A stretch of 63,595 nt of DNA, from IMG/VR virus record IMGVR_UViG_3300028549_001550, one strand, 5' to 3'. The notes below the pieces were generated by a model that ran no database searches, was not told where the DNA came from, and saw only the letters and a program-made list of their open reading frames with translations. Source of the stretch: a virus. Of this stretch, positions 18,460-63,595 are shown in pieces; positions within the stretch are counted from its first letter, which is position 1; each line of letters opens with the position of its first letter. The position numbers were made by a program, and so were the translations under genes.

Positions 18460-18460
18460 A

Positions 18461-20278: not shown

Positions 20279-20303
20279 CAATATAAAATAAGGAAAAAAT
20301 ACC

Positions 20304-23934: not shown

Positions 23935-24424
23935 CCCATTCACCCTGATCATAGATACCAGGGAGCAAAAACCCGTCTTGTGGGACAAGGAAGGGGATCC
24001 CTGGTTTAAAGATATGTTTGTAAAAAATGGCACCCTTAAAACTGGCGATTATAGCATTGAAGGTATGGATAAGCCCGATTGTGAATACTCCATTTGCATA
24101 GAACGGAAAAGCCTACCAGACCTTTTTGGTTCAACGGGCCGGGGCCGGGGCAGGCTTAAAAAAGAGTTTGAAAGAATGGCTGGATATGATTATGCCGCAA
24201 TCGTGCTTGAAGCAGATTTGAATACGATTTTTAGGGATCCACCACCCATCACAGCAATGAAAGCCAAGGCGGTATATCGCACATTGATAGCTTTTTCATT
24301 GAGGTATGGGGTTCACGTCTGGCCATGTCCTAATCGGCATTTTGCGGAGAAACACATCTATCTTACCCTCCAAAGATTTTGGCAGGATAGGAGACCAGGA
24401 GGGGCGCTATGGGCAAAAAAATAA
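23915..24424 (+). CDS. ERCC4-type (XPF/Mus81-like) nuclease
   Basis: IIDTREQKP...TGDYSIEG...ICIERKSLPDLFGS shows the GDx(n)ERKxxxD signature. An alternative ATG lies at 23924. Confidence 0.65.
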   Translation: MTFMISDPFTLIIDTREQKPVLWDKEGDPWFKDMFVKNGTLKTGDYSIEGMDKPDCEYSICIERKSLPDLFGSTGRGRGRLKKEFERMAGYDYAAIVLEADLNTIFRDPPPITAMKAKAVYRTLIAFSLRYGVHVWPCPNRHFAEKHIYLTLQRFWQDRRPGGALWAKK

Positions 24425-26034
24425 AGGATGAAACGAAAGAAGAAACAGACGAGCGATTAGAAAGAGAGATGATTGAAGGGTTCCGGGCTACGCACAAAAA
24501 AAGAACACCGGGGCAAAAAGTAAGCAGCTATAAGGCCAGAGATAAAGACAGTCAGAAAATCCTTGAATGCCTGAACAGCAATGAAACCGGGGATGCTTAC
24601 CTGTTTGTGAAACTCAATTACAATAAGTTCATTTACGATAAAAGCTCTAGCGAATGGTATTACTGGACAGGCCACTTTTGGAAAAGAGATATAGCCGAGC
24701 AGGTACGGGCCTCCTGCACAGAGGTTGTGGACCTGTACGGGCAGGAGATGGTTGATGAACAGATTACGCTTGCCCAGGCTACGGGCCTTGAGGATAAAGA
24801 GCAGATAAAAAAAAGCAACTATCTTATCAAGGCTTTAAAAACTCGAATCTTTGAACTACAAGGGTTACACCGTCAAAGCAACGTTTTAAAAATGGTGGTC
24901 TTTGGTAAAAATGCCTTGTGGTGTGACGGTAATAATTGGGATGCCGATCCCTGGTTGCTTGGATGTCAAAATGGGGTACTCAATCTAAAAACCGGGAAAT
25001 TCAGGGATGGTCGTCAAAAAGATTGGATAAAAACCCCCTGCGCCGTGGCCTGGGAAGGTGCAGACGCTCCCAGGAAAGCCTGGGAAAAGTTTATCTTTGA
25101 TATCATGTGCCATAACGAGCTTGACTTAGAAGGGCTGGAGATGGTCGAATTTCTTCAAAAGCTCTTTGGTTACTCAATCCTGGGTCTATCTACGGAACAT
25201 ATCCACCCTATCTGCTACGGGCCAGACGGCAGGAACGGCAAGTCAACATTGTTCGAAGTGATCAAGAAGGTTCTCGGTGATCTGGCACACAAGGCCCCAA
25301 CAAAGTTCTTGATGCAGACCATGGCCCCTGGAGCTTCAGGGCACGAAACGGATGTTGTAGCACTCAAGGGTAAAAGAGTGATCTGGTGTTCAGAGTCAAA
25401 TGATGGAGACAAGATGGATAGCGCAAAGCTCAAGGAGCTGACCGGGGGGGACACTCTTAACGCCAGGGGAGCATACTGCAAGCTGGCTGTATCCTGGGAA
25501 CCTACCCACACTCTTTTCATTCACACCAACAAAATAGTCCGGGCACCGGCAAACGATCCGGCATTATGGCAACGGTTAATGATGATTCGGTTCCCATTTT
25601 CGTTTCAGTGGGAACCCATTCCAGGCACAAACCAAAAGCTCAGGAGTGCTACACAAAAGGATGAACTCCATGCCGAACTCCCAGGGATACTGGCGTGGTT
25701 GGTCCAGGGCTGTAAGATGTGGCAAGACGATGGCTGTCACCTCGACCCACCCGAATGCGTAAAGGCTGCCACAAGGCAGTATCGAAAAGACGAGGACATT
25801 GTGGGCCACTTTATCGAAACTTGCATTATCAAAGGCGATAAAGATGATCCTGCATTCCGCTCTTCAACAAAGGCCATTTATTCCACGTACAAAGAATGGT
25901 GCCTGGAGAATGGCCACAAGCCCATGGCAAAGAACAGGTTATTCAAGGATCTGGAGGACAAATTCCCCAAAATAAAGTCTTATGGATATTATCATTTTGC
26001 GGGTGCCCTTTTAATCGACGATTGGAACAAATAA
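24409..26034 (+). CDS. D5/P4-family SF3 helicase (primase-associated NTPase)
   Basis: The D5_N-like stretch is DPWLLGCQNGVLNLKTGKFRDGRQKDWIK and the Walker A is ICYGPDGRNGKSTLFEVI. The length and C-terminal wHTH-like tail are typical of the P4 alpha / poxvirus D5 family. Confidence 0.85.
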   Translation: MGKKIKDETKEETDERLEREMIEGFRATHKKRTPGQKVSSYKARDKDSQKILECLNSNETGDAYLFVKLNYNKFIYDKSSSEWYYWTGHFWKRDIAEQVRASCTEVVDLYGQEMVDEQITLAQATGLEDKEQIKKSNYLIKALKTRIFELQGLHRQSNVLKMVVFGKNALWCDGNNWDADPWLLGCQNGVLNLKTGKFRDGRQKDWIKTPCAVAWEGADAPRKAWEKFIFDIMCHNELDLEGLEMVEFLQKLFGYSILGLSTEHIHPICYGPDGRNGKSTLFEVIKKVLGDLAHKAPTKFLMQTMAPGASGHETDVVALKGKRVIWCSESNDGDKMDSAKLKELTGGDTLNARGAYCKLAVSWEPTHTLFIHTNKIVRAPANDPALWQRLMMIRFPFSFQWEPIPGTNQKLRSATQKDELHAELPGILAWLVQGCKMWQDDGCHLDPPECVKAATRQYRKDEDIVGHFIETCIIKGDKDDPAFRSSTKAIYSTYKEWCLENGHKPMAKNRLFKDLEDKFPKIKSYGYYHFAGALLIDDWNK

Positions 26035-26073
26035 TTTACCTTTTCGGGGTATTTTGGAGCTTTTGGGGGGTGC

Positions 26074-26392
26074 AAATTGCCCTGCAAAGGCTTCAAAAGC
26101 CCTGGTAAATCACTAAATGCCCTGGCTTTTACCCTGAAAATAGAAATAACGATTGAATAAAAACAGATACTTATCTATTTCCAGGGCATTAGGGCATCTA
26201 AAAGGGCCTATCTTTCCATTTTGGGTATGTTTTTATACCTTATACACGTATTACGTCATATGAGAAAGAATGGGCAAACGAAATGCCCAAATGCCCTGGC
26301 GGTGGTTTATCTGTAATGAAATCAAGAGGTTGTCCAGGGTAAACAAAAGGCCCCAAAAGGCCCTAAATGCCCTGGACAAATGCCCTGGACCA
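26074..26392. repeat. Iteron array (candidate origin of replication) between the SF3 helicase and primase genes
   Basis: AAATGCCCTGG occurs perfectly at 26115-25, 26289-99, 26365-75 and 26378-88. Near-copies are AAATTGCCCTG 26074-84, AAAAGCCCTGG 26095-105 and AAATGCCC 26281-88. An inverted copy CCAGGGCATT lies at 26181-90. Confidence 0.7.
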
Positions 26393-26413
26393 CCCAAAAA
26401 GAAAGGTTGAACG

Positions 26414-27766
26414 ATGTTAGACATATTGCAACTATGCGAAGATACAGGCAATTCCTACAAAAAGGTCACAAATGCCGAATTTCAAGGCCCTTGCCCGTAT
26501 TGTGGAGGTAATGACAGGTTTTCTATTATTCTTGCTAAGGATCACTTTGTTTGCCGGTCCTGCAAAAAGGCAGGGGACTCGATGTTTTTCCAGATGGACT
26601 ATCATCAGATGGGCTACCTGGATGCTTGTGTCTCCCTGGGCCGGGATCCCAACATAAAATATAAATCCCTGAATATTCACAATGGGCCTTATCATTCTGC
26701 CTTGGTTCCCTGGGTGCCTCGTCAAATAACCTTGCCGCCCAAAGCCTGGCAGGAAAAAGCCGGGATCATTTTGATGAACGCCTATAAATATCTTTTGTCC
26801 GGGGCCGGGAAGGGCCATAGGGAATGGTTGAACGCCAGGGGTATATCAAACGCAACGATAAAACAGGCCAGGTTTGGTTGGATCACAAGGTCATTAACGT
26901 TTGATCGTAAGGCCTGGGGCTTGGATGCCACAAATGAAGACGGCACGAGTAAAAAGGATGTCTGGCTTCCTGAAGGGTTGATAATCCCTTATTTTCAAGG
27001 GAATCTGCCAGTGAGGTTAAGAATCCGGCAAAGCAAACCCATAGGAACTGATAGATATATCATCGTGGGTGGTTCCAGTACCGGATTCCTCGTTCACAGC
27101 AAACACGCAGGTGGTGATATCAACCCGTCCTTAAAAACGCTTGTATGCGAGTCTGAGCTTGACGGATGGCTGTTACATCAAGAAATAGGTGATCTGATCA
27201 ATATCATGTCGATTGGCAGTGCTCAGACAAGGCCTGGTGATGATATTGCTTCTGTCCTGGCTGGTCCTGCCCTGGTCACGCTCCTGGATAACGATTTGGC
27301 CGGGATCACTGAGCAAAAATGGTGGTCAAAGCAATACCCAGGATGTAAAAACTGGTTGATGCCAGCCGGGAAGGATCCGGGGGAGGGGTTCGCCCTGGGA
27401 GTCAATATCAGAGCCTGGTTCCTGAAAAAAGCAGGGTCCGTTGCAGACCTTTCGACAAAACTGGATCAAAACGTATGGGTACCTGAGTCAAAACCCGTCC
27501 TCCCTGCCACGGTGTCCTTTGCTCCTCCAGTGTCAAAACCCATACAGAAGCCAGCACAGAAAATGCCGACATCAAGAAGCCTGTGCAGACATAATAGGCC
27601 CTGCCTGAGTTTCAACAGTGAAACCTGTCTCGTTGCTAAGACAAATGTTTACAATATGGAAAAATGCCCTAAGGATCAATGGTACCTGCATCACGACAAC
27701 GAATATATTTCAACAATCGTTTTGGGATTTGAGTACGGGAAAAAGAGAAGACAGAAGAGGGAATAA
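26414..27766 (+). CDS. DNA primase (CHC2-type zinc finger plus Toprim)
   Basis: The zinc finger reads CPYCGGNDRFSI...FVCRSCKKAGD. The Toprim acidic residues appear in LVCESELDGWLL and TLLDNDLAG. Confidence 0.75.
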   Translation: MLDILQLCEDTGNSYKKVTNAEFQGPCPYCGGNDRFSIILAKDHFVCRSCKKAGDSMFFQMDYHQMGYLDACVSLGRDPNIKYKSLNIHNGPYHSALVPWVPRQITLPPKAWQEKAGIILMNAYKYLLSGAGKGHREWLNARGISNATIKQARFGWITRSLTFDRKAWGLDATNEDGTSKKDVWLPEGLIIPYFQGNLPVRLRIRQSKPIGTDRYIIVGGSSTGFLVHSKHAGGDINPSLKTLVCESELDGWLLHQEIGDLINIMSIGSAQTRPGDDIASVLAGPALVTLLDNDLAGITEQKWWSKQYPGCKNWLMPAGKDPGEGFALGVNIRAWFLKKAGSVADLSTKLDQNVWVPESKPVLPATVSFAPPVSKPIQKPAQKMPTSRSLCRHNRPCLSFNSETCLVAKTNVYNMEKCPKDQWYLHHDNEYISTIVLGFEYGKKRRQKRE

Positions 27767-27888
27767 GGGGGATTTGTCGAACCAACTCGGTGTGCAACCA
27801 CCGAGCCGGTTCCTAAACAAAAAACAGTTCCAATGAGCCGCTAAAGACAACAGGAAATGTTTATAAAAGCCAAAAACTTTATATAAGA

Positions 27889-27931
27889 TTTATTGTCAAC
27901 TATCAAGTAATCTTTGACAGTTGACAATAAA
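27889..27931. promoter_or_regulatory. Perfect 12-bp inverted repeat at the convergence of the replication operon and the leftward small-gene operon
   Basis: TTTATTGTCAAC (27889-900) and GTTGACAATAAA (27920-31) flank a 19-nt loop. It could be a hairpin/terminator or a protein-binding palindrome. Confidence 0.4.
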
Positions 27932-27940
27932 TAGCATGGG

Positions 27941-28075
27941 CTATCTCTTTTTTAATACTGATTTGATAATAGCAACATGAACAGCTGTCATGCGCTTGCT
28001 TGGGCTTTTAGCACAACCTTTTAACCAAGTTGTGCTTTGATCCTTTACCGCTTTTCTGTAGTCTTTATATGTCAT
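27941..28075 (-). CDS. Possible small ORF (44 aa), last gene of the leftward operon
   Basis: Hand translation gives MTYKDYRKAVKDQSTTWLKGCAKSPSKRMTAVHVAIIKSVLKKR. The ATG lies 2 nt after the upstream stop. It is below the 60-aa cutoff of the track. Confidence 0.3.
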   Translation of the reverse strand: MTYKDYRKAVKDQSTTWLKGCAKSPSKRMTAVHVAIIKSVLKKR

Positions 28076-28077
28076 CT

Positions 28078-28278
28078 TCAATCCTTTATCTCAAAATGTG
28101 AGCCTTCAATGATCAGGCAGCAACCTTTATCAATAACCTGCAAACCCATTGCTCCCTGCAAACTGTTTTCGAATGCTGTCCTCTTCCCTATGTATTGGGG
28201 GTAATCCTGGTTCGTCCATACGCTCCGGTAGTCTTTGTGAATGGAATTATACTGCCTGGTGGTTAACTGGTACATCAT
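28078..28278 (-). CDS. Hypothetical small protein (66 aa)
   Basis: The ORF sits in a packed co-directional operon. No family recognised. Confidence 0.5.
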   Translation of the reverse strand: MMYQLTTRQYNSIHKDYRSVWTNQDYPQYIGKRTAFENSLQGAMGLQVIDKGCCLIIEGSHFEIKD

Positions 28279-28480
28279 TCCCCCCCTTTAAAAAATCCAC
28301 ATCTGATCCGCTATTATAGGTGACGTAACCCTGCCCATGGTACATAAAAGACACCTTCATATCTCCGACAGGGTACGTCTCACACTCCATATCCACAAAT
28401 TCCCCATCTCGCCTGTGCCAATCCGTAACAGCAACGAACATCCCCACATCTTTTGTTTCCATTGCCTTGTCAATATCCAT
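28247..28480 (-). CDS. Hypothetical small acidic protein (77 aa)
   Basis: Its start is adjacent to the upstream stop (28482). No family recognised. Confidence 0.5.
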   Translation of the reverse strand: MDIDKAMETKDVGMFVAVTDWHRRDGEFVDMECETYPVGDMKVSFMYHGQGYVTYNSGSDVDFLKGGNDVPVNHQAV

Positions 28481-28481
28481 G

Positions 28482-28664
28482 TCAAGCTCCTATGTGATCC
28501 ATGTAAAATTTAAGAGCCGTTTCGATAGCCTGGCTCTTGTGTTTCTGTTGGTTTAGCCAATCTGCTACATGAGGGCTAACCCTGGCAGCCACATATATTT
28601 TTTTATCCGGGATCGTGGTTCCAGCCGGTCTACCTGCTCCTTTCCGTTTTCCGCCGCTTGACAT
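28482..28664 (-). CDS. Small basic protein (60 aa), possible DNA binder
   Basis: The sequence is MSSGGKRKGAGRPAGTTIPDKKIYVAARVSPHVADWLNQQKHKSQAIETALKFYMDHIGA. It has an AT-hook-like GRP motif and an RHH-like tail. Met at 28664 follows the upstream stop directly, whereas the longer track ORF would overlap the upstream gene by 131 nt. Confidence 0.45.
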   Translation of the reverse strand: MSSGGKRKGAGRPAGTTIPDKKIYVAARVSPHVADWLNQQKHKSQAIETALKFYMDHIGA

Positions 28665-28665
28665 A

Positions 28666-28971
28666 TTACACCCAATACCCACAACCCCTAAAATCCTCGG
28701 GGTGGCCGGTTGCGTCAATTTCATCATCATTTTTTGGTATGGGATAGTTTTCGCCATACCTATTAATGAGCCGTTGAATCTTTTCCCTATGCGCAAGATT
28801 CTCCTGGAATATCTTTTCGCAGCATTTTTCTTTCCAGGTTTCAGGGGTATCAGACATTAGCATATCTACAGCGCTGAATCCCTCATCTGTTTCTTGATTA
28901 AATATCTCCTCAACACCTTTTGTTGTACAGGCGTGAATAGCTACCTTTAGAGCGTTTTTGAGTGTTCTCAT
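28666..28971 (-). CDS. Hypothetical acidic protein (101 aa)
   Basis: The ORF is in the operon. No family recognised. Confidence 0.5.
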   Translation of the reverse strand: MRTLKNALKVAIHACTTKGVEEIFNQETDEGFSAVDMLMSDTPETWKEKCCEKIFQENLAHREKIQRLINRYGENYPIPKNDDEIDATGHPEDFRGCGYWV

Positions 28972-28995
28972 GATGTTTATCCTTTTATCATTATT

Positions 28996-29011
28996 GCCCC
29001 GTTTCCGGGGC
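28996..29011 (-). repeat. Intercistronic GC hairpin (variant copy)
   Basis: GCCCCG-tttc-CGGGGC lies between the 29019 and 28971 genes. Confidence 0.6.
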
Positions 29012-29018
29012 TGGTTGG

Positions 29019-29273
29019 TTATCTATTGTAAAGACCAGGGCCATCTTCAACCACTTTGTATCCACACCCGAGAGATTCTACAATGGATAGACCATCAAGC
29101 GAAGGTTCATATATTCTTGCCCTTTCAGCCTGTCCATATTTTTTTAGATCCTGGACAAGTTCTTCTTCTGTTTCAAAATCAGTCCCCAATACGGTGAAAC
29201 CATCACCGTTTGCCCACATTAACACTGGAACGGATCTTTCTGGAAATTCTATAGTTGCAATTAGTGTTGCCAT
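29019..29273 (-). CDS. Hypothetical acidic protein (84 aa)
   Basis: AAGGAGA lies upstream on the minus strand. No family recognised. Confidence 0.55.
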   Translation of the reverse strand: MATLIATIEFPERSVPVLMWANGDGFTVLGTDFETEEELVQDLKKYGQAERARIYEPSLDGLSIVESLGCGYKVVEDGPGLYNR

Positions 29274-41768: not shown

Positions 41769-42581
41769 ATGAAAAACACCCATGAAATCAAAGGCAATGT
41801 AGTGAAAGTAACCGTTCCTTACAAAGATGGAGAAAATTTTATCTTTACTATTGATCTTGATGACCTGCCGATAGTTGACAGTAAAGCATCATGGTCGATG
41901 GATAAGAACAAAACCTCTGCCGTTGCCAATTTTCGTGAAGAGGGGAAGATGTGCAAAGCTACCATGCACCGACTTCTTACTGGCTGGAAGAATGTTAATT
42001 TTGCAGATGAAGATCGTTTTAATTTAAGGCGGTCAAACATGATTGAAGCAGAGCAACGCAAGCGACGCAGGAAAGCTGGTCAACATCTAAAGGGGAACGA
42101 GTATATTGTACACCAAGACTATGCCGAAATGATTATTGACGGAAAGTCTTCTGGCAAGGTTCTTATAGATTGTGATGATTTATTTCTCGTTTCTAATTAC
42201 ACATGGAACATAAACCCAAGCAATGGATATGTTCAAACCAAAACAAGAGAAGGCCGTGGTAAATCTCAAGCCATTTATCTCCACAGACTGATTATGGGAG
42301 AGAAATGTGATGGAACGAAAGTGGACCACATAGATGGGATTAGATTAAATAACAGAAAAAACAATCTCAGGACGTGCTCTAACTCTCAAAATTTACATAA
42401 TATTAAAACTACATGGCATCCAAACGAGCGAAAGTTTAGAGGCGTAACTGTTGCCAGATATTGTTATGTTGCACAGATCCAGATTGATGGCAAACGATAT
42501 CGTGAGTGCTTCTCTACCTTTGAAGACGCTATGAAGCAGCGTTTAAAATGGGAAAAAGAATTTAACCCTTCAGGATTATAA
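41769..42581 (+). CDS. HNH homing endonuclease with AP2 DNA-binding domain
   Basis: The HNH_3 motif is HRLIMGEKCDGTKVDHIDGIRLNNRKNNLRTCSNSQNLHN and the AP2-like stretch is FRGVTVARYCYVAQIQIDGKRYRECFSTFEDAMKQRLKWEKEF. An AT-rich 104-bp spacer precedes it, and it sits as a free-standing insertion in the structural operon. Confidence 0.85.
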   Translation: MKNTHEIKGNVVKVTVPYKDGENFIFTIDLDDLPIVDSKASWSMDKNKTSAVANFREEGKMCKATMHRLLTGWKNVNFADEDRFNLRRSNMIEAEQRKRRRKAGQHLKGNEYIVHQDYAEMIIDGKSSGKVLIDCDDLFLVSNYTWNINPSNGYVQTKTREGRGKSQAIYLHRLIMGEKCDGTKVDHIDGIRLNNRKNNLRTCSNSQNLHNIKTTWHPNERKFRGVTVARYCYVAQIQIDGKRYRECFSTFEDAMKQRLKWEKEFNPSGL

Positions 42582-45108: not shown

Positions 45109-45302
45109 GCCTGATTCCTTTCAATCCAGATACCGAGGTTGAGTTATTAAAAGTTATGTCACAGCAGATTACAATCATGGAGGTTGATTCCGGGCTTGGT
45201 TCTTCCCTTTACCAATCATTCCAGGACTATTTAACCCTGGACGGGGGTAGACCTGCGGAGAACTTCACGAATATTAAACCTTTGGATGGAGGTAGACCAT
45301 AA
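45105..45302 (+). CDS. Hypothetical protein (65 aa)
   Basis: It overlaps the upstream gene by 4 nt and the downstream gene by 1 nt (TAATG). Confidence 0.45.
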   Translation: MSLIPFNPDTEVELLKVMSQQITIMEVDSGLGSSLYQSFQDYLTLDGGRPAENFTNIKPLDGGRP

Positions 45303-46018
45303 TGGCGATACCAATTCAATTCAGGAAAGGCACTGTTAAAGAATGGGCCGATGCCGACCCTGTTCTTTTTGAAGGGGAACTTGGGCTACTTTTGACAGAC
45401 GATCCTGATACGCAGCTTATGAAGATGGGGGACGGCACCCTGAAATGGTCTGAACTGCCATGGGCTTTACGAGGCCCCAGGGGGTTTGATTTTGCTTATC
45501 AGTGGGCCGGGACATCCCTTCAGGTAAAACATAGTGACGAGGAACTATTCACGGGCGTAGACCTGGGGTTATCCTTCTCCTGGGATGGTACCAGGCTCGG
45601 GATCAAGAGGGGAACAGACCAGGAATACACGTTCACCGACCTGCGTGGTGCCAACTTTCAATATGCTTGGGATGGTACCAGGTTAGGGGTAAAGACCTCG
45701 GATGAAACAGAATACCTTTATTCTGATCTCAAGGGCGAGAAGGGAGACACAGGGAGTCAGGGAGAGCAAGGCATACAGGGAATCCAAGGGATACAGGGTG
45801 AGCAAGGGATACAAGGAGAAAAAGGGAATATCGGCGAGAAGGGAGATACCGGGAACCCTGCCAACCTTGCAGAGGGTCAGATATGGGTGGGGAATGCCTT
45901 GGGGGTAGCCACAGCGACACCCACAGATATCACGTCAATAAAAAAACTAACCCAAGTAGCCTATGACGCTCTTGATCCTAAAGTGGAAACAACTCTCTAT
46001 CTTATCATTGAGGAATAA
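45302..46018 (+). CDS. Tail fibre protein with collagen-like triple-helix repeats
   Basis: The N-terminus FRKGTVKEWADADPVLFEGELGLLLTDDPDTQLMKMGDGTLKWSELPW matches the Mtd_N / fibre N-terminal pattern. It is followed by 15 consecutive G-x-y triplets: GEKGDTGSQGEQGIQGIQGIQGEQGIQGEKGNIGEKGDTGNP. Confidence 0.75.
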   Translation: MAIPIQFRKGTVKEWADADPVLFEGELGLLLTDDPDTQLMKMGDGTLKWSELPWALRGPRGFDFAYQWAGTSLQVKHSDEELFTGVDLGLSFSWDGTRLGIKRGTDQEYTFTDLRGANFQYAWDGTRLGVKTSDETEYLYSDLKGEKGDTGSQGEQGIQGIQGIQGEQGIQGEKGNIGEKGDTGNPANLAEGQIWVGNALGVATATPTDITSIKKLTQVAYDALDPKVETTLYLIIEE

Positions 46019-54552: not shown

Positions 54553-56085
54553 ATGAGCATAGAAGATATCATTCTAAGGGGTGTTGACAGGGAAGCCACC
54601 CTATGGAACCCCATAGCGGACACGTTTATATCAATGTTGGATATTGAACAGAGAACCATTTTGTTTGGCTTGTATTCTAATGGCTTTCAAAATGGCTTTA
54701 TATATTTGCAGGAAATATCATCAGAAAAGCTCCTGCAAATCATAGCCCAATACGACAGCAATATGTCACAGCTTGACTCTGACCAACAAAAAACAGTCTT
54801 GGAGGTTGCGTCTAAAAGGTATCTTGATTCCCTGGATCAGATGATACATGAACAGAAAATGGAGGAACTATCCTCTAAAATTGACGCAACAGATAAGGAG
54901 TTTGATGCCAAGTTTGAGGCTTTAGAAGCAGACAGACAAGCTATCGAGACGTTGCAAGTCAAGGCACTCAAGGCCATAGAGGAAACCACGGCAAAGATAG
55001 CAATCCTTGAATCCAGGATTGCAGAAGAAGCCGTCAATAGGAGTGAGGTTGAAATAAGTGTTTTGGAAAAGGCATTGTCTGTTAAGAAGGTGTCTTTGCA
55101 GATAATAGAGGCCGGGGTTAAGGGTTTAAACATTCAGCTTGAAATTCAAAACGCCGCCGTCCAGAACCTTGACCTTGCAGTTGAAAAACATAATTACCAA
55201 CAGCAAGCGGATCAGGTTCCGGCAAACTTAAAAGACATGGAAGCCGAAGGGATAAACATTGACGCAGAGGTTTATAAATCAGGGACAACACGCTCCCTTT
55301 TAGATGCCGATGTAGCAGAGCTTGGGATCCGGACGGTAAAGACAGAAATAGATATTGAGTCAAAGGAGATAGACACCAAACTTTTGGAGGTTGATATCGC
55401 TAAAGCGCTATACAAGACCTCTGAAATTGATGTTGACATTAAAGAGATCCTTGCGAAAACAGAACGGGAGAAGGCCAAAAGGATTGACCTTGAAACTGAC
55501 ACAGCCTTGGTTGATGTTCGCATTGCTGACTTAGAATTGGATGTCAAAAACGTTGCTATCCAATTGTCAGGGATTGAAGTTGATATCGCCATGCTTGATA
55601 TTAAGATCCTACAGACGAACCTTATCAAGATCGACAAGACCATTGCACAGATCAGAAAAGATACAATGGCGTATGAGATCCCCAATAAAAAACAAGCGCA
55701 ACTTGACACCATTGTTAAGGATGTTGAGATACTTAAAACAAGAATAACAGCGTCTAACGAGTACCAGACCATTGAAAAGAATATGCAACTTTCACGTATT
55801 GATAAGCAAGTTGCAGAGCATAATTTTAAAATGTCTATGACAGCAATGGATGAAGAGTTTTCCATTCACAAAGCAGACATTAAAATAGAATCTTACTCAA
55901 AAGACATTGAAATAGCGACAGACCAGAAGAAATATAAACAAGACGAGGACGACGAACAGAAAAGGGTTCCAGAATCACAGATAGACAGCGCACAGACGGC
56001 CCAAAGCGCCGCTATTGATGCCGCCGAGACAATGGCAACGGCAAACATTGTCAACAGTCTTACACACCAAATCGGTGCCGCATAA
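54553..56085 (+). CDS. Coiled-coil virion/internal protein B (510 aa), paralogue of A
   Basis: It has the same composition as protein A. The C-terminal tail reads AAETMATANIVNSLTHQIGAA. Confidence 0.6.
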   Translation: MSIEDIILRGVDREATLWNPIADTFISMLDIEQRTILFGLYSNGFQNGFIYLQEISSEKLLQIIAQYDSNMSQLDSDQQKTVLEVASKRYLDSLDQMIHEQKMEELSSKIDATDKEFDAKFEALEADRQAIETLQVKALKAIEETTAKIAILESRIAEEAVNRSEVEISVLEKALSVKKVSLQIIEAGVKGLNIQLEIQNAAVQNLDLAVEKHNYQQQADQVPANLKDMEAEGINIDAEVYKSGTTRSLLDADVAELGIRTVKTEIDIESKEIDTKLLEVDIAKALYKTSEIDVDIKEILAKTEREKAKRIDLETDTALVDVRIADLELDVKNVAIQLSGIEVDIAMLDIKILQTNLIKIDKTIAQIRKDTMAYEIPNKKQAQLDTIVKDVEILKTRITASNEYQTIEKNMQLSRIDKQVAEHNFKMSMTAMDEEFSIHKADIKIESYSKDIEIATDQKKYKQDEDDEQKRVPESQIDSAQTAQSAAIDAAETMATANIVNSLTHQIGAA

Positions 56086-57467
56086 TGACGGAAACTGATT
56101 TTTTTGCAAGGAGTTTAAGGCTCCCAGATATAAACACTCTGAAAGACGGTCAAATGTCCGGGGCCTTATCCGGGCGCATGGCTCAACTTTTCGAGATGCT
56201 AAATGAAAACAATACCGTTTCCCAGGCACCCATCATGGTTGACCCTGGGGACCATATCCGGATAGGTGACGATGGCACCCCTGGTTTAGCCCTGTCTCTC
56301 CCCATTGCATATGACATTTGGTATCTTTGGCATACTGTTAATGTTCTTCCGGCAGACGACCAGGACAGGGCCTTGTTTGTTGATCTGGTGTTGAATCCAT
56401 TTCTCCTGGAGCTTGGAGGGTTGAAACCTCTCCGGACACTCGCAAAAAGTAACTTGGTCCCTGGTGAGATCACAAACGGATCATTCTTTGAGAAAAACGG
56501 ATATTATTACATAAAGGAAATGAGGTTTGAGACTTTTTTAAAAGACAAAGCTCCAGAGCACACATCCCCAGGGCCGAAAAGAATAAACGAACCAGGGAAA
56601 GACCAGGACGGTTCCGGGCCTGGAGATATCTATTCTGCTTATCTTGCTTTTCCAGTAGGGCCGCTTGGAGTTATGGAAGATATTTCCCTGGTGTATGAGA
56701 GCATGGCCCATGAAGGGGAATATGATAGCTCTTATGACGCAGTTCCAGGCAAGGGGTTACTACCGCCCAAGGAATCGTTAAGCGTTAAATGCAAAGGCTT
56801 TCCTCTGTTTGAAAAGGCATATCTTCCAACAGGTCTTGATACTGAATATCCAGCCGCAGCAATGAACGGACATGACACCATTTCACCTCACCATTGGCTT
56901 AGGTATTGGATAGCAAAAGACAGCGTTTATCCTATCCCTGGGGAGTTTGTAGGGATATCAGTAAAGCCCTTGGCTATCCCTCCCCATTGCTGGTGGTTCC
57001 AGGAGACAAGCCCCTTTTTATACTCTGGAAACTGGTTTGAAACAGACTATTATACATCGGGAATAATAATAGCTGTTATTGAGTATATAAATAAAACTCA
57101 ATATGTGGTATCAAAAGTTTCAGGAAAACACCCCCAAAGAACGGGGACAAGGGACCACATTCTTTCAGAAGGAACGGAGTTTTCGTTTGATATGGTGGGC
57201 AATATTTATAAGGTTCGCGTCAAGGACCAAGATTTGTATTTGCAATCGACAGACTTTAAAGAATATTTCGTTGATGACCGGGTGGCAATCATTAAAAGAT
57301 TTGAAACACATTCTGAAAACTTTAAGTGGACAGGGTTGTCACCGGGGAAGTTAATTCCGGGGCAGGGGGTTGAATCTCTCCAGAATTATGACATCCAAAC
57401 ATCCGGAAGTCTTTTCCAACTCAACAAATCATGGGTTATTGCACCCATAACTTTTTATAAGGAGTAA
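56085..57467 (+). CDS. Virion protein (460 aa)
   Basis: It has an ATAATG overlap with the upstream gene. No family recognised. Confidence 0.55.
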   Translation: MTETDFFARSLRLPDINTLKDGQMSGALSGRMAQLFEMLNENNTVSQAPIMVDPGDHIRIGDDGTPGLALSLPIAYDIWYLWHTVNVLPADDQDRALFVDLVLNPFLLELGGLKPLRTLAKSNLVPGEITNGSFFEKNGYYYIKEMRFETFLKDKAPEHTSPGPKRINEPGKDQDGSGPGDIYSAYLAFPVGPLGVMEDISLVYESMAHEGEYDSSYDAVPGKGLLPPKESLSVKCKGFPLFEKAYLPTGLDTEYPAAAMNGHDTISPHHWLRYWIAKDSVYPIPGEFVGISVKPLAIPPHCWWFQETSPFLYSGNWFETDYYTSGIIIAVIEYINKTQYVVSKVSGKHPQRTGTRDHILSEGTEFSFDMVGNIYKVRVKDQDLYLQSTDFKEYFVDDRVAIIKRFETHSENFKWTGLSPGKLIPGQGVESLQNYDIQTSGSLFQLNKSWVIAPITFYKE

Positions 57468-57472
57468 ACCAG

Positions 57473-58471
57473 ATGAATTTAGATTCGATACTTGATAAGG
57501 CGTGGAGCTTTTTAGATAAATCAATGCAGAGCAAACGGGAACAATCGTTAGCAGAAGGAGAACGCCTTAGTGCCGTTGAGTCTGAAAAAGAAAAAACAAA
57601 ACGGATGGAGTTATCTTCCCTGGAAAAAATACAAGCGCTTGTAAATCAGGGTGCAATAAACAAAGAGGAGCTTGTCAACCAGGGGTTACTATCCAAACAA
57701 CAGTTGGAAAACTCAGGGTTGATGGATAGGCAGGAGCTTGTCAACCAGGGTGAATATAAAAGACAGGAACTTGTCAACTCTGGATCTTTGGCTAAACAAA
57801 AGCAAAGTGACTCGGGGGCATTGGAGAGGTCTAAACTTGATTCAGAAACATCGCTTGGAGTGGAGAGGCTTAGGGGGAACACTACAAGAGATACCACAAC
57901 CGCAACCATGAAAATGTTTAACGATGACGGCACCCCTGCAAATGATAGGATTATTCGTCCAGCCAGAGACACAAACATTAGATCAGAAGTGATCACGCCA
58001 GAACAGAGCGCTATATTTAACCCTTCATCGGAACAGATAGATAATCCTACAAAGAAAGAACCATTATCATTGGTTCCAGAGGCAGGAGTGGCAAGACATC
58101 CAACGGCTCGATCTATGAATGCTCTTCCTGGTGGGCCTGGGAGTGGAATGACACCACAGGAAACTCTTTACCCGGTTCCACGGCAGGAGCCGGAGACATT
58201 ATACCCGGTTCCCCAGGAGCCGGAAACTCTTTATCCGGTCCCCCAGGAGGAAACTCTTTATCCGGTCCCACAGAACAGCAACCGTCAGATGATGCCGCTT
58301 CCTTCCAAGGAAACTCTTTATCCCGTTCCCCAGGAGGAAACCCTTTATCCGGTCCCACAGACAAAAAAGAAGAAACCACATACATCCAAGGAAACCCTTT
58401 ACCCTGTTCCACAGCAGGAAACCCTATACCCGGTTTACCCGACCAACAATAAAAGAAAGAGGATGTTTTAA
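57473..58471 (+). CDS. Repeat protein with (E/Q)LVNQG-type N-terminal repeats and eight ETLYPVP(Q) C-terminal repeats
   Basis: The N-terminal repeats read QALVNQGAINKEELVNQGLLSKQQLENSGLMDRQELVNQGEYKRQELVNSG. The C-terminal repeats begin QETLYPVPRQEPETLYPVPQEPETLYPVPQEETLYPVPQ... The stop overlaps the giant-gene ATG. Confidence 0.7.
   Translation: MNLDSILDKAWSFLDKSMQSKREQSLAEGERLSAVESEKEKTKRMELSSLEKIQALVNQGAINKEELVNQGLLSKQQLENSGLMDRQELVNQGEYKRQELVNSGSLAKQKQSDSGALERSKLDSETSLGVERLRGNTTRDTTTATMKMFNDDGTPANDRIIRPARDTNIRSEVITPEQSAIFNPSSEQIDNPTKKEPLSLVPEAGVARHPTARSMNALPGGPGSGMTPQETLYPVPRQEPETLYPVPQEPETLYPVPQEETLYPVPQNSNRQMMPLPSKETLYPVPQEETLYPVPQTKKKKPHTSKETLYPVPQQETLYPVYPTNNKRKRMF
58160..58441 (+). 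repeat. Eight irregularly spaced copies of the 21-nt unit GAAAC(T/C)CTTTA(C/T)CC(G/T)GT(T/C)CC(A/C) encoding ETLYPVP
   Basis: Read directly. The copies are synonymously diverged, and spacers are 3-9 nt for most copies, with two longer ones. Confidence 0.85.
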
Positions 58472-61400
58472 TGCCATTATCCGACCGTACCATGAAGTAT
58501 TATGATGATATCATAACCAAAAATCCAGACAGAGACAGGAAAGCGATAACAAAAGGGATTGAAGCCTTTCACGGGGAAGGGAATACCACGGAATGGTTGC
58601 CAACAGTTGATGAACTTGAGCGCTCTGGCCGAAAAGCTATGGCTACAGGGTTGGATATGTCCACAGGTCAGGGGCAGGGGCCACAGGCTGAACCTAAAGG
58701 CAATGTGTTAGGTGCCATTAAAGATATTGGGGTAGGGTTGATCCGAACACCTATAGATACAGCCACATCTATAGCAAGTATCATTGATGACCCTTACACC
58801 GAAGATGGTTTCTTTGATCCAATGATTGACAGCAGACGAAAGGATCAAGAAAAATATATTAATGCTCCTGGAGCAGAAGAGATAGCTGTACCTGGAACAA
58901 GCGTTTCGCGCCGTGAAATCAGAGCAGGAATGTCGAGCTTTGGTTATTCCATGGCGGCAATGGGTGCCTCCTTTATTCCAAAAGTGGCAGGGATGGCTGT
59001 CGGGGCTGTTAGCGGATCCACTATCCCTCTTGCAGGAACATTGACAGGGGCAGCTATTGGCTTTACCGCCGGTGCCGCCGCTTCTGGTAAAGCCGCCTAC
59101 GATATGGATAAGAACGCATTTGTCCGGGAATACAGGGCTTTCTTGGATAAAGACGCTGGACGGCACATAAACGATTCAGAATTTGCAGAAATGTTACCTG
59201 GAAAGGTTGCCGATGTTCTACATGAGCATGGCCTTCATGAGGCAGGGTGGGAAGGTCTTGCCACTATGGTTGAACGTGGAGCCATGGATAAGATATTTAA
59301 GGGCGGCGGGTTGACAGCTAAGGCCGCTAAGGGGTTGGTTGGCCTTATAGGGTTTGAATTAGGATCAGAATCAGCAACACAGATTGGTCAAACAAATGCA
59401 GAAGTAAACCTTGGCATGAAGCCAGAGGATGAACGAAGGTCTTTTGCGAGCCCACAAGATTGGGCCACATCTGCAAGAGAAGTAGCGCCAGCAATCGCTT
59501 TAATGAGTGGAGGGATGGCTACAGGATCATATCTTGCAGGAAAAGCGTTCAACAAAAAAGAAGGAGCGGAAGATCCTCCTCCTGTGTCTGATGCCGAAAA
59601 GATACTGCTAACTCCCAATGAATTGGGCAAGACTCCAGAACAGGTTTTACTTGATGGCGCTATTAATGATGAAGATGATGTAAAAGCGGCATCAGAATTT
59701 TCAGAGGAAGAATTAGACGGTGTACTTGGGGAACAGACCGGGGAACCTTCCGGAACACCAGCCGGGGAACCTACAAAGGCAAGCACACCAGAAGATGAAT
59801 ATGCCGCTTATGAAGCGGAACTTGCAAAGTATCGTCAGGGTAGGGAAACACCAGGGGAAACAGGGGAAGCCCCAGGGGAACCTGCACCAAAGGGGCAAGG
59901 CCAAGATGAAGCAGAGTGGGAAACAGAGTTTGCGAAGTACAGAGAGACAGCAGAACCTGTTAAAGACGAAGAGGTAGTACCTGAGCCGATCGTAACAGCA
60001 AAGGAGCCAGTGGTTGAGCCTGATGTTGAGCCAGTCATTGAGCCAGTGGTAGAACCTGTTAAGGATCCTGAGCCTGAGCCGGTAATCAAGCCTGATGTTG
60101 AGCCGGTTAAAGACGAAACCCCCATCGAAGCCCCTGCTATTGTTGCCGAGGAAGAAACCCCTGAGCCTGTAATCGAACCTGAACCAATCATTCCAGAAAA
60201 CGAGGAAGCCCAGGGAGTCACCTCGGGGCAAGCGGTCACCTTCACCAATAAGGGTGGGGAAGAGATATCTGGAACCGTTACCAAGGTTGAAGGTGACAAG
60301 GCGTGGATTGAAGATGGGGAAGGGAAAAAATTCAGGTTGCCACAGACGAAATTAACCCCCATCGAAGCCACAGCAGAAGAGGCAGAAGAGGTAAAAACAC
60401 TAGGGGCCCTAAATCCCCTTGATGTAAAAGTTGAGGAGTCTAAAGCAAAGGAAGCCTTTACCCTTACAGGCACTCAACAAACTTTTATTGATAAAAACAT
60501 TGAAAAACTTGGATCCATTGAATCTGTAAACAAGGAATACCCAGGCAAGGATAATGTTTCTCAGTATGCACGAGCCAGGGCCTTAGAATTTTTTCCTGCC
60601 GAGGATTCTACCGCTTTACCTGAACCCGGCATCGAACCATCCATAGAGACACAAGATAAAGAGGTTGCAAAACAGGCGTGGGAAATAACACCAGATGAGA
60701 TATCAAAACTTTCCCCTGAAGCCGCCCGGAAAACCCTTTCAGAACTGAACGATCAAACTTCTGTAGATTACGGAAAAACTACACCGTCCTTTTTAGAAAA
60801 AGACAAGCTCGAAAAAATCAACGCAACAAAGACCTTGCTTAGAGAACAAGCGGGGCAAGCTCCATGGCAACGCACACAGGCTCAAATGCAACGATTAGAA
60901 GGTATGCCAGCAAAGAGGCACCAGAAATTTGTTGAACAGGCCATATCAGAAGGAAAACCCGTTCCTAAAGAAGTTCTTGAAGCCTACCCTGATCTTACAA
61001 GCAACACCCCCAAGACTGATAACGTAATGGAGGATGAACCGCCAAAGGCTCCAGAAGTAAAAGCATCACAATATAAGGATTGGCCCGAGAGTTATACCGC
61101 CCCCACAGAAACAAGTGGAGAGGTAAAAAAGACCATGACGGGGAGAAACGCAACCCCCTTTCCTTCCTTGGACACAAAGAGCAAGGGAAGGGCAAGGGTT
61201 TCTGTTAAGCATCATCATAGGTGGTTGCTTGTCAACGCTCTTGCTGAAGCCACAGCACGAGAGGACGAAACAAACCTCCTCACATTCAACGGGCATAACA
61301 GCGAGAAACTTTCACCTTCTGATGTGGACGCCATGTATTCATACCTGTTTAAATGGGAACCGCAAAAAAAACAGCCTGGACCTATTGTGATGCCAGCCGT

Positions 61401-63594
61401 TGCAGACAGCGAAATCAAGGCAGACGGAAATACCGTAGTTGTTCCCATACCCGAAGCTAAAGCCAATGCTTTAGAACCAAAAGAACAGAAATCGTATCTT
61501 TTAAAAGAAATTGATGCTGCCATAAAACAGGTTTCATCTCCAGAACCATCAGGGGACATGGTTACGATCAAGATCCCTGGGGATGGAGAATATAATATCA
61601 TTAATACCGAGGCGGCTTTGGGAAAGTTTAAAAAGAGGGTATCGTCTTTCTCTGCCGAGGATGTTGTGAATCACGAAGTGCCAGCGTCCAAGACAGGAGA
61701 CAAGCGGCAAAATAGGCGAGTCACAGATTTTTCCGGGGATTATGTCAGGGACTACGCTCCTAAAAACTCATCCCTGCCAAGAAGGAAACCAATAAAACAC
61801 GATGGGGTATTGATTGACGGATATTATGGTGAAGGGTTTTATTCTAATGGAACATTTATTGTCAAAATGGACAAAGCTCCAGGAGGCAGAAAAGACCTTG
61901 GAAAATTTGATACTTCTCATCTACGTAGGATGATAACCCCTGTTCCAGAGCTTCTTATTCCTGCAAAGATTGGTGCCGAGGTTTACGACAATAGTGGGCT
62001 TAAGACTTTTGACGCATACCATGGTGTTCATGTCTACTCTAAAGAAGCCCATGAAGGAGAGCAAAGGCATTATCTCTATAAACCGTCTGAAATAGATGCC
62101 ATAATGTCTAAATTTCCCAAAGCCACACCATCTATATATATGCTTAAAGAGAAGGAAGGACAGCTATTTTTCAAAGATAACAATGGGGATATTGTGGGTG
62201 TTGCGACTCCATTTAGAAAACTTCCTGGAGAATACGGGAATCACATAGGTAAAGCAAAAAGCATTCATGAACTTGCCCTGGGCAGGATGGAAAAGGGGAC
62301 AGATACAAGTGTAAAGACCAAGGAAGAAATCCTTCAAGGGGCAAAGGACCGGGCCAGCCTTTTAAAGGAAGCTAACCGCCTACTGACATACAGGGGCGCA
62401 GATATGAAATACGTCAAAAACCGTTTGACTCCAGCCATAGCGCAAGCACACATAGGGGACAATTCTCATCTCAGGAATGCGGTTGAAGATGTTAAAGGGG
62501 TTATTTCCCTACATAACCCTTCCTTTGCTGCAAACACTCAAGAAACAGAGGACCAGGCACCCAAGGCCATCCCGGCAAATTACAAATCATCTCCAGGTGA
62601 AAAGATCAGGATAGGGGATTATGTAAAAGCGGTAAAGGATATTGACTATTACGGGAAAGAACCATTACGGGTTCTGCATGAAACAACCTCTGGCATCAAA
62701 GTTGAAACTCTGGAGGGGAAGTCTAAGGGCGGTCATTATTCCCATAGTGACTTTGAAAAGGTCATGTCAGAGGACCAGGCACCAGAAGCCAAGCAGGAGC
62801 CTGTCATCCCGCCCAAGAAATTAGCGGAAGCACAAGCAGAAGCCAAAAAAGCCGGAGGTATAAGGCTTGTTTGGCAACACCCTCAACATGGGCATTGGAT
62901 TGTGTCAAGCCGTGGCCCTGGTGGGATGGATGTCGATATTTACAGCGTCACGCCTGATGGATCCGTTGATCTTTGGAGGGGCAAAGGGGACAGTGGTAAG
63001 CTGTCCGAATCGCCAACAGAAACCGTGGAAGCCAAAGACGAGGATCCCTTGTCTCCGGATAAACTTATTGCAGAAGGGGAAAGACAAGATGCCGAGAACC
63101 CAGGAAGCGCCACGCCAGAATCAATCGTTAACGCTCTTTTAGGGAAGTCTCCGGACAAGGTAACAGCCAAAGACGAGGATCCCTTCTCACCTGATAACCT
63201 GCTTGCAGAATGGGACAGACAAGCCGAGGCAATAAAGGCACTGGAGACTGAGACAGCCAAAGCGAACGAAACTACGGGAAAGCCAAATAGATCAACACCA
63301 CCTAAAGCCGTAGCCCCTGAGTCAGTTGTTAAATCTCTTTCAGACAAGGCAAAGCCTGTTAAGGAAACCAAAGCCGCCAAAGCCGCCGAGACAAAACAGC
63401 ACCTTTCAAATGCCATGGATAAGCTGAAACAAATCAATGCTATATTTGGTGAACGTGGTAGTTTCTCTACTGAAAAGATGGATAAAAACATCTATGCACA
63501 AATAAAACCATTATTACAAGGCGCATTGGAAGATATTATTGCAGCAGGTAAAACGGCAACAGAATTTGTGAAAATATCAATGGAAGCCTTGACT
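58471..63594 (+). CDS. Giant polyvalent (multi-domain) protein, N-terminal part. It is open to the window end and continues at 3-10358. The full ORF on the circle is 15,228 nt / 5,075 aa.
   Basis: ATG 58471 overlaps the stop of the upstream gene (TAATG), and an in-frame TAA lies at 58450. I translated every codon from 58471 to 63595 and found no stop. The ORF is absent from the supplied track only because it never terminates in the window. The frame is continuous with ORF 75..10358 through the 255-bp overlap. Confidence 0.9.
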   Translation, partial: MPLSDRTMKYYDDIITKNPDRDRKAITKGIEAFHGEGNTTEWLPTVDELERSGRKAMATGLDMSTGQGQGPQAEPKGNVLGAIKDIGVGLIRTPIDTATSIASIIDDPYTEDGFFDPMIDSRRKDQEKYINAPGAEEIAVPGTSVSRREIRAGMSSFGYSMAAMGASFIPKVAGMAVGAVSGSTIPLAGTLTGAAIGFTAGAAASGKAAYDMDKNAFVREYRAFLDKDAGRHINDSEFAEMLPGKVADVLHEHGLHEAGWEGLATMVERGAMDKIFKGGGLTAKAAKGLVGLIGFELGSESATQIGQTNAEVNLGMKPEDERRSFASPQDWATSAREVAPAIALMSGGMATGSYLAGKAFNKKEGAEDPPPVSDAEKILLTPNELGKTPEQVLLDGAINDEDDVKAASEFSEEELDGVLGEQTGEPSGTPAGEPTKASTPEDEYAAYEAELAKYRQGRETPGETGEAPGEPAPKGQGQDEAEWETEFAKYRETAEPVKDEEVVPEPIVTAKEPVVEPDVEPVIEPVVEPVKDPEPEPVIKPDVEPVKDETPIEAPAIVAEEETPEPVIEPEPIIPENEEAQGVTSGQAVTFTNKGGEEISGTVTKVEGDKAWIEDGEGKKFRLPQTKLTPIEATAEEAEEVKTLGALNPLDVKVEESKAKEAFTLTGTQQTFIDKNIEKLGSIESVNKEYPGKDNVSQYARARALEFFPAEDSTALPEPGIEPSIETQDKEVAKQAWEITPDEISKLSPEAARKTLSELNDQTSVDYGKTTPSFLEKDKLEKINATKTLLREQAGQAPWQRTQAQMQRLEGMPAKRHQKFVEQAISEGKPVPKEVLEAYPDLTSNTPKTDNVMEDEPPKAPEVKASQYKDWPESYTAPTETSGEVKKTMTGRNATPFPSLDTKSKGRARVSVKHHHRWLLVNALAEATAREDETNLLTFNGHNSEKLSPSDVDAMYSYLFKWEPQKKQPGPIVMPAVADSEIKADGNTVVVPIPEAKANALEPKEQKSYLLKEIDAAIKQVSSPEPSGDMVTIKIPGDGEYNIINTEAALGKFKKRVSSFSAEDVVNHEVPASKTGDKRQNRRVTDFSGDYVRDYAPKNSSLPRRKPIKHDGVLIDGYYGEGFYSNGTFIVKMDKAPGGRKDLGKFDTSHLRRMITPVPELLIPAKIGAEVYDNSGLKTFDAYHGVHVYSKEAHEGEQRHYLYKPSEIDAIMSKFPKATPSIYMLKEKEGQLFFKDNNGDIVGVATPFRKLPGEYGNHIGKAKSIHELALGRMEKGTDTSVKTKEEILQGAKDRASLLKEANRLLTYRGADMKYVKNRLTPAIAQAHIGDNSHLRNAVEDVKGVISLHNPSFAANTQETEDQAPKAIPANYKSSPGEKIRIGDYVKAVKDIDYYGKEPLRVLHETTSGIKVETLEGKSKGGHYSHSDFEKVMSEDQAPEAKQEPVIPPKKLAEAQAEAKKAGGIRLVWQHPQHGHWIVSSRGPGGMDVDIYSVTPDGSVDLWRGKGDSGKLSESPTETVEAKDEDPLSPDKLIAEGERQDAENPGSATPESIVNALLGKSPDKVTAKDEDPFSPDNLLAEWDRQAEAIKALETETAKANETTGKPNRSTPPKAVAPESVVKSLSDKAKPVKETKAAKAAETKQHLSNAMDKLKQINAIFGERGSFSTEKMDKNIYAQIKPLLQGALEDIIAAGKTATEFVKISMEALT
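58930..59100 (+). other. Gly/Ala-rich glycine-zipper-like hydrophobic segment in the giant protein (possible membrane-inserting region)
   Basis: Translation reads MSSFGYSMAAMGASFIPKVAGMAVGAVSGSTIPLAGTLTGAAIGFTAGAAASGKAAY, with repeated small-xxx-small spacing. Confidence 0.5.
59953..60198 (+). repeat. Acidic Pro-rich (E/D)P(V/I) low-complexity linker of the giant protein
   Basis: Translation reads EPVKDEEVVPEPIVTAKEPVVEPDVEPVIEPVVEPVKDPEPEPVIKPDVEPVKDETPIEAPAIVAEEETPEPVIEPEPIIPE. At DNA level there are reiterated gttgagcc/gagcctg units. Confidence 0.8.
63031..63228 (+). repeat. Internal duplication within the giant ORF (AKDEDP-x-SPD-x-L-x-AE-x-x-RQ motif twice)
   Basis: 63031-63096 and 63166-63228 share gccaaagacgaggatccctt and then diverge. 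The peptides are AKDEDPLSPDKLIAEGERQDAE and AKDEDPFSPDNLLAEWDRQAE. Confidence 0.8.
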
Positions 63595-63595
63595 C
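63341..63595. repeat. Terminal overlap, copy B (identical to 1-255)
   Basis: Same as copy A; exact 255-bp identity read by eye. Confidence 0.95.

Follow-up and report, generated by a model that had tools for sequence, protein, structure and literature searches.

The 63,595-nucleotide viral record IMGVR_UViG_3300028549_001550 (the window, meaning that whole stretch of DNA) encodes a 332-residue protein, here called the repeat protein, whose gene is the second to last of the late, particle-building operon and is translationally coupled to a DarB-like polyvalent giant gene. To judge from alignments and gene order, the protein belongs to a hitherto undescribed family that accompanies giant polyvalent proteins, and in this genome it has a unique and selected array of eight ETLYPVP-type peptides. 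The family is small, unannotated and known only from metagenomes. Because the gene order is conserved across its loci, comparison strongly supports a functional link between the repeat protein and the giant. The array, by contrast, is seen in this genome alone and is a recent, lineage-specific addition of about 95 residues that lies outside the core role of the family. The features concerned are listed in Table 1.

Table 1. Positions of the repeat-protein gene, its parts, its signals and its neighbors in the window
Feature	Positions	Strand	Basis and remarks
Repeat-protein gene	57473-58471	+	332 residues; stop included
Ribosome-binding site of the repeat protein, AAGGAG	57459-57464	+	read in sequence; strong; 8 nt ahead of ATG
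Conserved N-terminal domain, residues 1-165	57473-57967	+	alignment and AlphaFold2; two long helices on either side of the repeat region, then a small beta-hairpin
About six 11-residue repeats, xELVNxGxLxx, residues 54-119	57632-57829	+	DNA repeat family; conserved N-x-G columns
Tail motif PEAGVARHPTARS, residues 202-214	58076-58114	+	family consensus (P)EAGxGRHTxxRS
ETLYPVP(Q) array	58160-58441	+	seven exact copies and ETLYPVYP; three higher-order units
Ribosome-binding site of the giant gene, AAGAGGA	58457-58463	+	within the final codons (K-R-M) of the repeat protein
TAATG stop/start overlap of repeat-protein and giant genes	58469-58473	+	sequence
Giant gene, first part, residues 1-1708	58471-63595	+	frame
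Giant gene, second part, past the circular junction	1-10358	+	frame continuity; 255-nt overlap
460-residue upstream partner	56085-57467	+	beta-rich; >146 homologues; directly upstream of the repeat-protein family
Two conserved block genes, 529 and 510 residues	52951-56085	+	no Pfam or PHROG match

Companions of giant polyvalent proteins

At every family locus with enough DNA, a gene of ~460 codons, the family member and a giant gene follow one another in this order. The giants found there vary in length and content, with at least 4389 residues at locus L001, 3201 at L002-L004 (with ddrB-ParB and RadC domains), at least 3672 at L005, at least 1599 at L024, and at least 4539 at L025 (with ART-PolyVal, Eco57I, SNF2 and RadC). 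The 63,620-bp genome that bears member P0051 has the same arrangement, as does the locus of the distant member P0022 (L010), where the giant has 3218 residues with helicase and LPD38 domains. Linkage to a gene for 3200 to 5100 residues thus holds in lineages only 38-48% identical and in a much more distant branch besides.

The junction of the two genes is conserved as well. An overlap of the repeat-protein stop with the giant's start had been read from the window in the initial annotation and is present as described; the same 1-nt overlap occurs in 8 of the 13 tabulated loci (the window, L001, L002, L005, L010, where it reads TAGTG, L013, L020 and L024), and a 2-nt gap separates stop from start in L017, L019 and L025. 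In most of these overlap or 2-nt-gap loci an AGGAG-like site can be seen by eye within the last three to five codons of the family gene. This bears on the basic C-terminal tail (KRKRMF) to which the initial annotation also drew attention. The tail is certainly there, but since AAGAGGA overlies it and the relatives are alike, it is dictated at least partly by the downstream start signal, and is largely the footprint of the giant's ribosome-binding site. Over the equivalent site the relatives end in RRMF, RRMFS, RRMI, RKMY or IGGY; their recurrent basic or aromatic C-termini are explained by an AGGAG-like site in the last codons.

At its other end, the repeat-protein gene starts 5 nt after the stop codon of the preceding gene (57465-57467). 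Scans of the 52-60 kb region for promoter and terminator signals gave none above chance. A terminator-like hairpin with a T-run (57431-57457, +) lies within the end of the 460-residue gene, ahead of the repeat-protein ribosome-binding site; its stem encodes conserved residues, and such sites occur at chance level regionally. A frameshift fusion to the giant gene was considered by eye and dropped, since a T-run would lead into the wrong frame.

The giant frame leaves the end of the window only because the contig is circular, so that the initial annotation was right about a giant gene there and saw only part of it. Bases 1-255 duplicate 63341-63595, which closes a circle of 63,340 bp (45.3% G+C), and across the junction the frame joins a 3427-residue open reading frame at the window start to give a protein of 5075 residues, whose gene takes up ~24% of the genome. 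Pfam identifies Helicase_C and ResIII in what is a DarB-like methylase and helicase, and BLASTP aligns three segments with the anti-restriction protein DarB of phage P1 (E 3e-19, 8e-12 and 2e-10), to which the giant is related. The phage probably injects the giant against the defenses of its host. The giants at L001, L002, L005, L024 and L025 share with it a common N-terminus, M-x-LSDRTIKYY..L...NP.RD...GI..FH..GN.T.F.P (in the window 58471-58650, residues 1-60), while their bodies and domain sets differ. This conserved stretch of ~60 residues may be a capsid-targeting tag. A likeness to the starts of P1 DdrB (MSLSDQV) and Ulx (MATLSDTI) was also examined and rejected, as it extends over five residues and does not rise above shuffled controls. 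In one relative (L013, 5953-7072, and L014, 2083-3202) the conserved N-terminus forms a separate 39-residue open reading frame, followed by two stops and then a new open reading frame; the gene could be split or subject to recoding, or the sequence could contain an error.

Two further parts of the giant may be mentioned here. Residues 172-206 (58984-59088) form a glycine-zipper-like hydrophobic stretch with a weak, sub-cutoff Pfam match to Gly-zipper_Omp (E 0.002); after ejection of the giant this segment may act on membranes. Around residues 500-580 (60004-60104) lies an acidic, proline-rich (V/I)EP tandem repeat with periods of 12 and 24 nt, the second proline-rich repeat of the repeat-protein/giant pair; we take it to be reminiscent of the proline-rich spacer of TonB.

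Searches define the family narrowly. Among 5.8 billion proteins there are 12 relatives of the repeat protein, all unnamed and metagenomic, and the exact protein is not in that collection. From 1.84 billion cluster representatives, a profile of the N-terminal domain retrieved 45 at E <= 1e-3, of which 21 reach E <= 1e-10, and family loci were located twice in IMG/VR and six times in JGI metagenomes. The family profile gave no prophage in 185,579 species genomes, and hence no host can be assigned; the 332-residue protein had no tblastn match in 50,697 phage records. The only database phage with any similarity is the metagenome-derived MetMV (MK170447), in which positions 17893-29125 encode proteins of 453 residues, 266 residues (with similar 11-residue repeats) and 3002 residues, in the same order as in the window. 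It was published as a Methanosarcina virus, its archaeal host having been assigned only in silico (PMC7164591). Bins containing relatives of the 460-residue protein are named Deltaproteobacteria, Desulfobacterium, Syntrophales and Methanosarcinaceae.

Only the first ~165 residues of the family align, with a mean column identity of 55%. From a 13-sequence alignment, AlphaFold2 predicts for this domain a long helical hairpin (helices 3-58 and 83-141) with the ELVNQG repeats at its turn, then the small beta-hairpin; the predicted local distance difference test (pLDDT) is mostly 70-94 over residues 1-160, with 67 in one block of ten, and from residue 168 onward disorder is predicted (pLDDT ~40). 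A second repeat family, (E/Q)LVNQG, in the N-terminal half was correctly recognized in the initial annotation, and repeats of the same 11-residue type occur in distant family members and in the equivalent MetMV protein. The distant members P0022, P0031 and P0044 begin with a glycine-rich hydrophobic stretch. The model had no match at E <= 0.001 in Foldseek searches of the PDB and BFVD, a profile search of the PDB gave a best E of 0.1, and Pfam and PHROG scans of the repeat protein gave no match; scans of the 13 aligned members returned chance-level Pfam matches only and two PHROGs of unknown function, in one member each.

Beyond the domain the family tails, ~80 to 190 residues long, are unalignable; what they have in common is the (P)EAGxGRHTxxRS motif and the last few residues only. 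The motif is found in 8 of the 13 tabulated orthologues (6 distinct sequences) and could be a cleavage or docking site. A parallel division runs through the giant. Relative to three relatives, identity is 59-66% for the 460-residue neighbor, 43-46% for the N-terminal domain of the repeat protein and 50-57% for the first 60 residues of the giant, against ~22% for the repeat-protein tail and 21-25% for giant residues 61-400, values that amount to no real alignment. Such a pattern suggests conserved handles (the N-terminal domain and the first ~60 residues of the giant) attached to hypervariable payloads (the tail and the giant body).

The ETLYPVP array

All eight repeats listed in the initial annotation are present, seven as exact ETLYPVP and the last as ETLYPVYP, the shared ETLYPV beginning at residues 230, 241, 251, 260, 280, 289, 307 and 316. 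Six copies are followed by Q and one by R. The array falls into three higher-order units, 81-87 nt long, in each of which the motifs are paired; the tandem units within it measure 27-30 nt, and the linkers between the higher-order units, NSNRQMMPLPSK and TKKKKPHTSK, are basic or neutral. Nowhere else in the window, in any frame, does LYPVP occur, and a degenerate DNA pattern for two copies matches the window four times as against no match in 100 shuffles. AlphaFold2 leaves the array disordered (pLDDT ~40), and we infer a proline-stiffened, disordered, eight-fold display of one peptide.

The seven exact 21-nt units are 67-95% identical in pairwise DNA comparison, and every one of the 73 codon differences between pairs of them is synonymous, with 0 non-synonymous. 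Relating the units takes at least 10 independent substitutions, each of them silent, for which the probability under neutrality is ~2e-6, as just 27% of possible single changes would be silent. The frame is therefore translated, as its strong ribosome-binding site and its homologues also indicate, and the peptide is kept by purifying selection, in line with the early proposal of selection on the peptide instead of recent slippage.

The same silence weighs against a role at the level of DNA or RNA. An RNA element tuning translation of the giant, or an array of DNA-binding sites, with the peptide as a by-product, might be suspected since the array ends only 30 nt ahead of the giant start codon. 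Such an element scarcely seems credible. Variation concentrated at third positions with invariant amino acids is the opposite of what it predicts, RNA at the junction folds no better than shuffled sequence (z = -0.47; no notable structure), and relatives have the same junction without the array.

A passive spacer or an accident, either a recent, tolerated expansion of low complexity or an artefact of assembly, would sit well with the unalignable tails of ~80 to 190 residues, with tandem units of 27-30 nt, which can arise by slippage, and with the single assembly that spans the array. We nevertheless hold it very improbable. The ten or more all-silent substitutions since duplication (P ~2e-6) exclude very recent slippage as well as neutral drift, and misassembly or collapse is unlikely because the longest exact repeat in the array is just 21 nt, each copy having its own flanks. 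A second, independent assembly of the phage agrees with the window with one mismatch in 5793 nt; it ends at 57877, ahead of the array.

None of the family members has an ETLYPVP array, including the closest ones (L024/P0002, L023, L025 and the orthologue in the P0051 genome), and it is missing even from relatives whose neighboring gene is 66% identical. Because the closest orthologues are 80-90 residues shorter (245 residues for L024/P0002, 251 for L025 and 250 for the P0051 genome), the array is an insertion of ~95 residues, placed between the GRHT-like tail motif and the last few codons. The C-terminal 108 residues had no match at E <= 1 among the 5.8 billion proteins, the degenerate two-copy DNA pattern had 0 matches in JGI metagenomes, IMG/VR and GTDB genomes, and a literature search on the peptide strings gave irrelevant matches only; the initial view that no motif like ETLYPVP has been described holds across those proteins, the three DNA collections and the literature. 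Internal repeat arrays as a habit of the family were considered and rejected, as no other member has one, and P0029, with ten HVNPGQYEYQE repeats, proved to be an unrelated low-complexity match.

A possible role inside the phage head

Comparison with characterized phages suggests what a companion of such a giant might do. In phage P1, the methylase-helicase DarB travels in the head, together with the head-internal accessories Hdf, DarA, DdrA and Ulx, and reaches the host along with the DNA; the window giant shares three DarB-like segments with it. DarB enters the head by means of a 30-residue N-terminal signal, smaller Dar proteins are needed to load it, it is loaded after other Dar proteins, and these accessories are themselves packaged (PMC9024508). 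Giants of the window's clade similarly share their conserved first 60 residues, and the repeat protein, like the P1 accessories, is encoded together with a DarB-like giant, its adjacency and overlap being conserved. The systems differ in that P1 is a myovirus with its dar genes in two operons, whereas in the podovirus-like genome of the window the two genes lie side by side and overlap. The family profile scored at most 0.3 bits against P1 DarA, DarB, Hdf and DdrA and gave no score for Ulx and DdrB.

The Bcep22-like phages offer a parallel in gene position. In Bcep22 (gp74-gp75), DC1 (gp66-gp67) and JC1 (gp68-gp69) the DarB-like giant is the last gene of the particle module, as it is in the window, and in JC1 both the giant and the protein encoded just upstream were detected in purified particles by mass spectrometry (PMC9144972). 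Directly ahead of the giant, in the position of the repeat protein, these phages encode a protein of medium size, such as DC1 gp66, much of which is predicted as proline-rich and disordered over a long stretch. Genes of the Bcep22-type pair are 80 nt apart, whereas those of the window overlap, and gp66 has a glycine-rich hydrophobic N-terminus that the repeat protein lacks. There is no similarity of DC1 gp66 to the repeat protein or to the family profile (hhalign probability 0.5%); a BLASTP match of P0022 with gp66 (E 0.037) covers the N-terminal glycine-rich stretch only.

A wider comparison is with the ejection proteins T7 gp14/15/16, P22 gp7/20/16 and N4 gp51/52, helical products of distal particle-module genes that are stored in the head and expelled to form a channel; the repeat protein is likewise helical and distal, and its predicted long helical hairpin presumably recalls T7 gp14. 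T7 gp14 and P22 gp7 and gp20 insert into the membrane. The ejection proteins have no disordered repeat tail, whereas the repeat protein has one, and the family profile scored at most 3 bits against P22 gp7, gp14, gp16 and gp20 and T7 gp13, gp14 and gp15; for N4 gp51/52, covered only by the tblastn search of the 332-residue protein against the phage collection, there was no match. N4 ejects its giant polymerase gp50 (~3500 residues) along with two smaller proteins (PMC13434306), and a 2811-residue polyvalent protein of phi24B is found in the particle and has been proposed to be ejected (bioRxiv 10.64898/2026.04.10.717836). The downstream giant belongs with the polyvalent proteins of phages and plasmids, and its relatives shuffle the domains ART-PolyVal, LPD38, ddrB-ParB, RadC, Eco57I and SNF2; the repeat protein stands apart from these as a separate, small and conserved companion gene.

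On these analogies we somewhat favor a repeat protein that works inside the head as an accessory or adaptor, being synthesized and packaged together with the giant. Coupling would keep its synthesis in fixed proportion to that of the giant, and both would be packaged inside the head. The N-terminal domain would probably recognize the conserved first ~60 residues of the giant, in a manner comparable to the P1 DarB signal and the stepwise loading of Dar proteins. On infection, the tail would be the exit for the repeat protein and the giant, which would either precede the DNA or accompany it. The array might bind several copies of one partner, be it a host protein or the variable part of the giant, or might act as a spacer, and as such it would form part of a variable payload, like the domain set of the giant. 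A docking scaffold or chaperone for the giant had been suggested in the initial annotation; conserved gene order upholds the connection with the giant, but the array, being absent from relatives, is a recent addition. If there is docking, the N-terminal domain is the likely site because it is conserved, whereas relatives lack the array.

Several points weigh against packaging of the repeat protein as an accessory. The searches reported here revealed no likeness in sequence or fold to known internal or ejection proteins or to P1 Dar accessories. The repeat protein is hydrophilic (best 19-residue Kyte-Doolittle mean 0.17) and is without a hydrophobic segment. Because the array is missing from all relatives, it cannot be needed for the core role of the family, and one assembly only covers it. 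Finally, the phage is known from metagenomes alone; its packaging of the protein is argued by analogy, and the contact of the N-terminal domain with the giant's N-terminus by their parallel conservation.

An assembly chaperone that is not itself packaged, keeping the 5075-residue chain soluble or unfolded and handing it to the forming head, accounts for several of the same features. Tight translational coupling is typical of chaperone-client pairs, the protein combines a fully hydrophilic sequence with an extended disordered tail, and conservation of the N-terminal domain parallels that of the giant N-terminus. We judge it unlikely nonetheless, given that in JC1, the nearest analogue to have been studied, the product of the gene immediately ahead of the giant is found in particles (PMC9144972) and that the P1 Dar accessories, too, are packaged (PMC9024508).

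A tail directed at the host, an idea close to the host-mimicking motif array of the initial annotation, is a further alternative. The eight ETLYPVP copies would then serve, once ejected, as short linear motifs for binding a protein of the host, with the N-terminal domain serving delivery only. The partner could be a periplasmic or envelope protein, or a defense or housekeeping factor. Strict selection on the peptide in all copies agrees with this, as does the location of the array in a hypervariable payload that changes as fast as the counter-defense domains of the giant; host adaptation would also predict an array that is specific to one lineage. We consider it distinctly improbable all the same, for ETLYPVP occurs in no other protein among those searched. 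One version of it takes ETLYPVP for a mimic of the TonB box, whose pattern is (D/E)-T-hydrophobic-x-V-x-A, as in colicin M (ETLTVHA) and BtuB (DTLVVTA). By eye, and set against these examples, we take the likeness to be loose, the first three residues fitting. Prolines at positions 5 and 7 would disfavor the pairing as a beta-strand that TonB boxes use, and proline substitutions in the TonB box of BtuB uncouple it.

There is also a bolder proposal: the family would be a dedicated handle-binder whose N-terminal domain grips the ~60-residue signal of the giant and loads it into the head, with the tail as a host-directed payload, here an eight-fold array for capturing a host protein on entry. We regard this proposal as speculative and rather unlikely. 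If true, our searches would make it the first internal protein of a phage for which a short-linear-motif array has been described.

The surrounding genome and significance

The genome is of the short-tailed-phage type, with a P22-like portal, a capsid protein, a large terminase, a D5-type primase-helicase, a RecD-like helicase and a collagen-like tail fiber. For its portal the closest cultured matches, at ~43% identity, are in Burkholderia phages of the Bcep22 type and in related Ralstonia and Pseudomonas phages, with weaker similarity to Stx phages. The particle module runs in the order portal, capsid, head closure, tail fibers, conserved block, repeat protein and giant. Within it, an open reading frame for an HNH endonuclease (41769-42581) sits between the head-closure gene and a 720-residue tail gene, and positions 45302-46018 encode a 238-residue tail-fiber-like protein with an Mtd_N domain, a collagen triple-helix repeat and a phage tail-tip domain.

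The conserved block itself recurs in several loci as genes for 529, 510 and ~465 residues followed by the repeat protein and the giant. The 510-residue protein has a repetitive charged and hydrophobic sequence that looks coiled-coil-like by eye. For the 460-residue partner, AlphaFold2 gives a model of pLDDT 85 and predicted template modeling (pTM) score 0.81; Foldseek found no match to it in the PDB (best E 0.02, template modeling score 0.15), and the model may represent a new fold.

In some phages about a quarter of the genome is given over to giant polyvalent proteins, whose injection is believed to disarm the defenses of the host. The work on phi24B and N4 explicitly asks how proteins of 3000-5000 residues can be loaded into a head and then leave it by way of a narrow tail (bioRxiv 10.64898/2026.04.10.717836; PMC13434306). 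A conserved, coupled partner gene together with an N-terminal tag on the giant presents a concrete and testable candidate pair of loader and signal. The array, for its part, offers a clean case of selection preserving a tandem peptide motif within a phage protein that is disordered there, and may be of use as bait for its partner.

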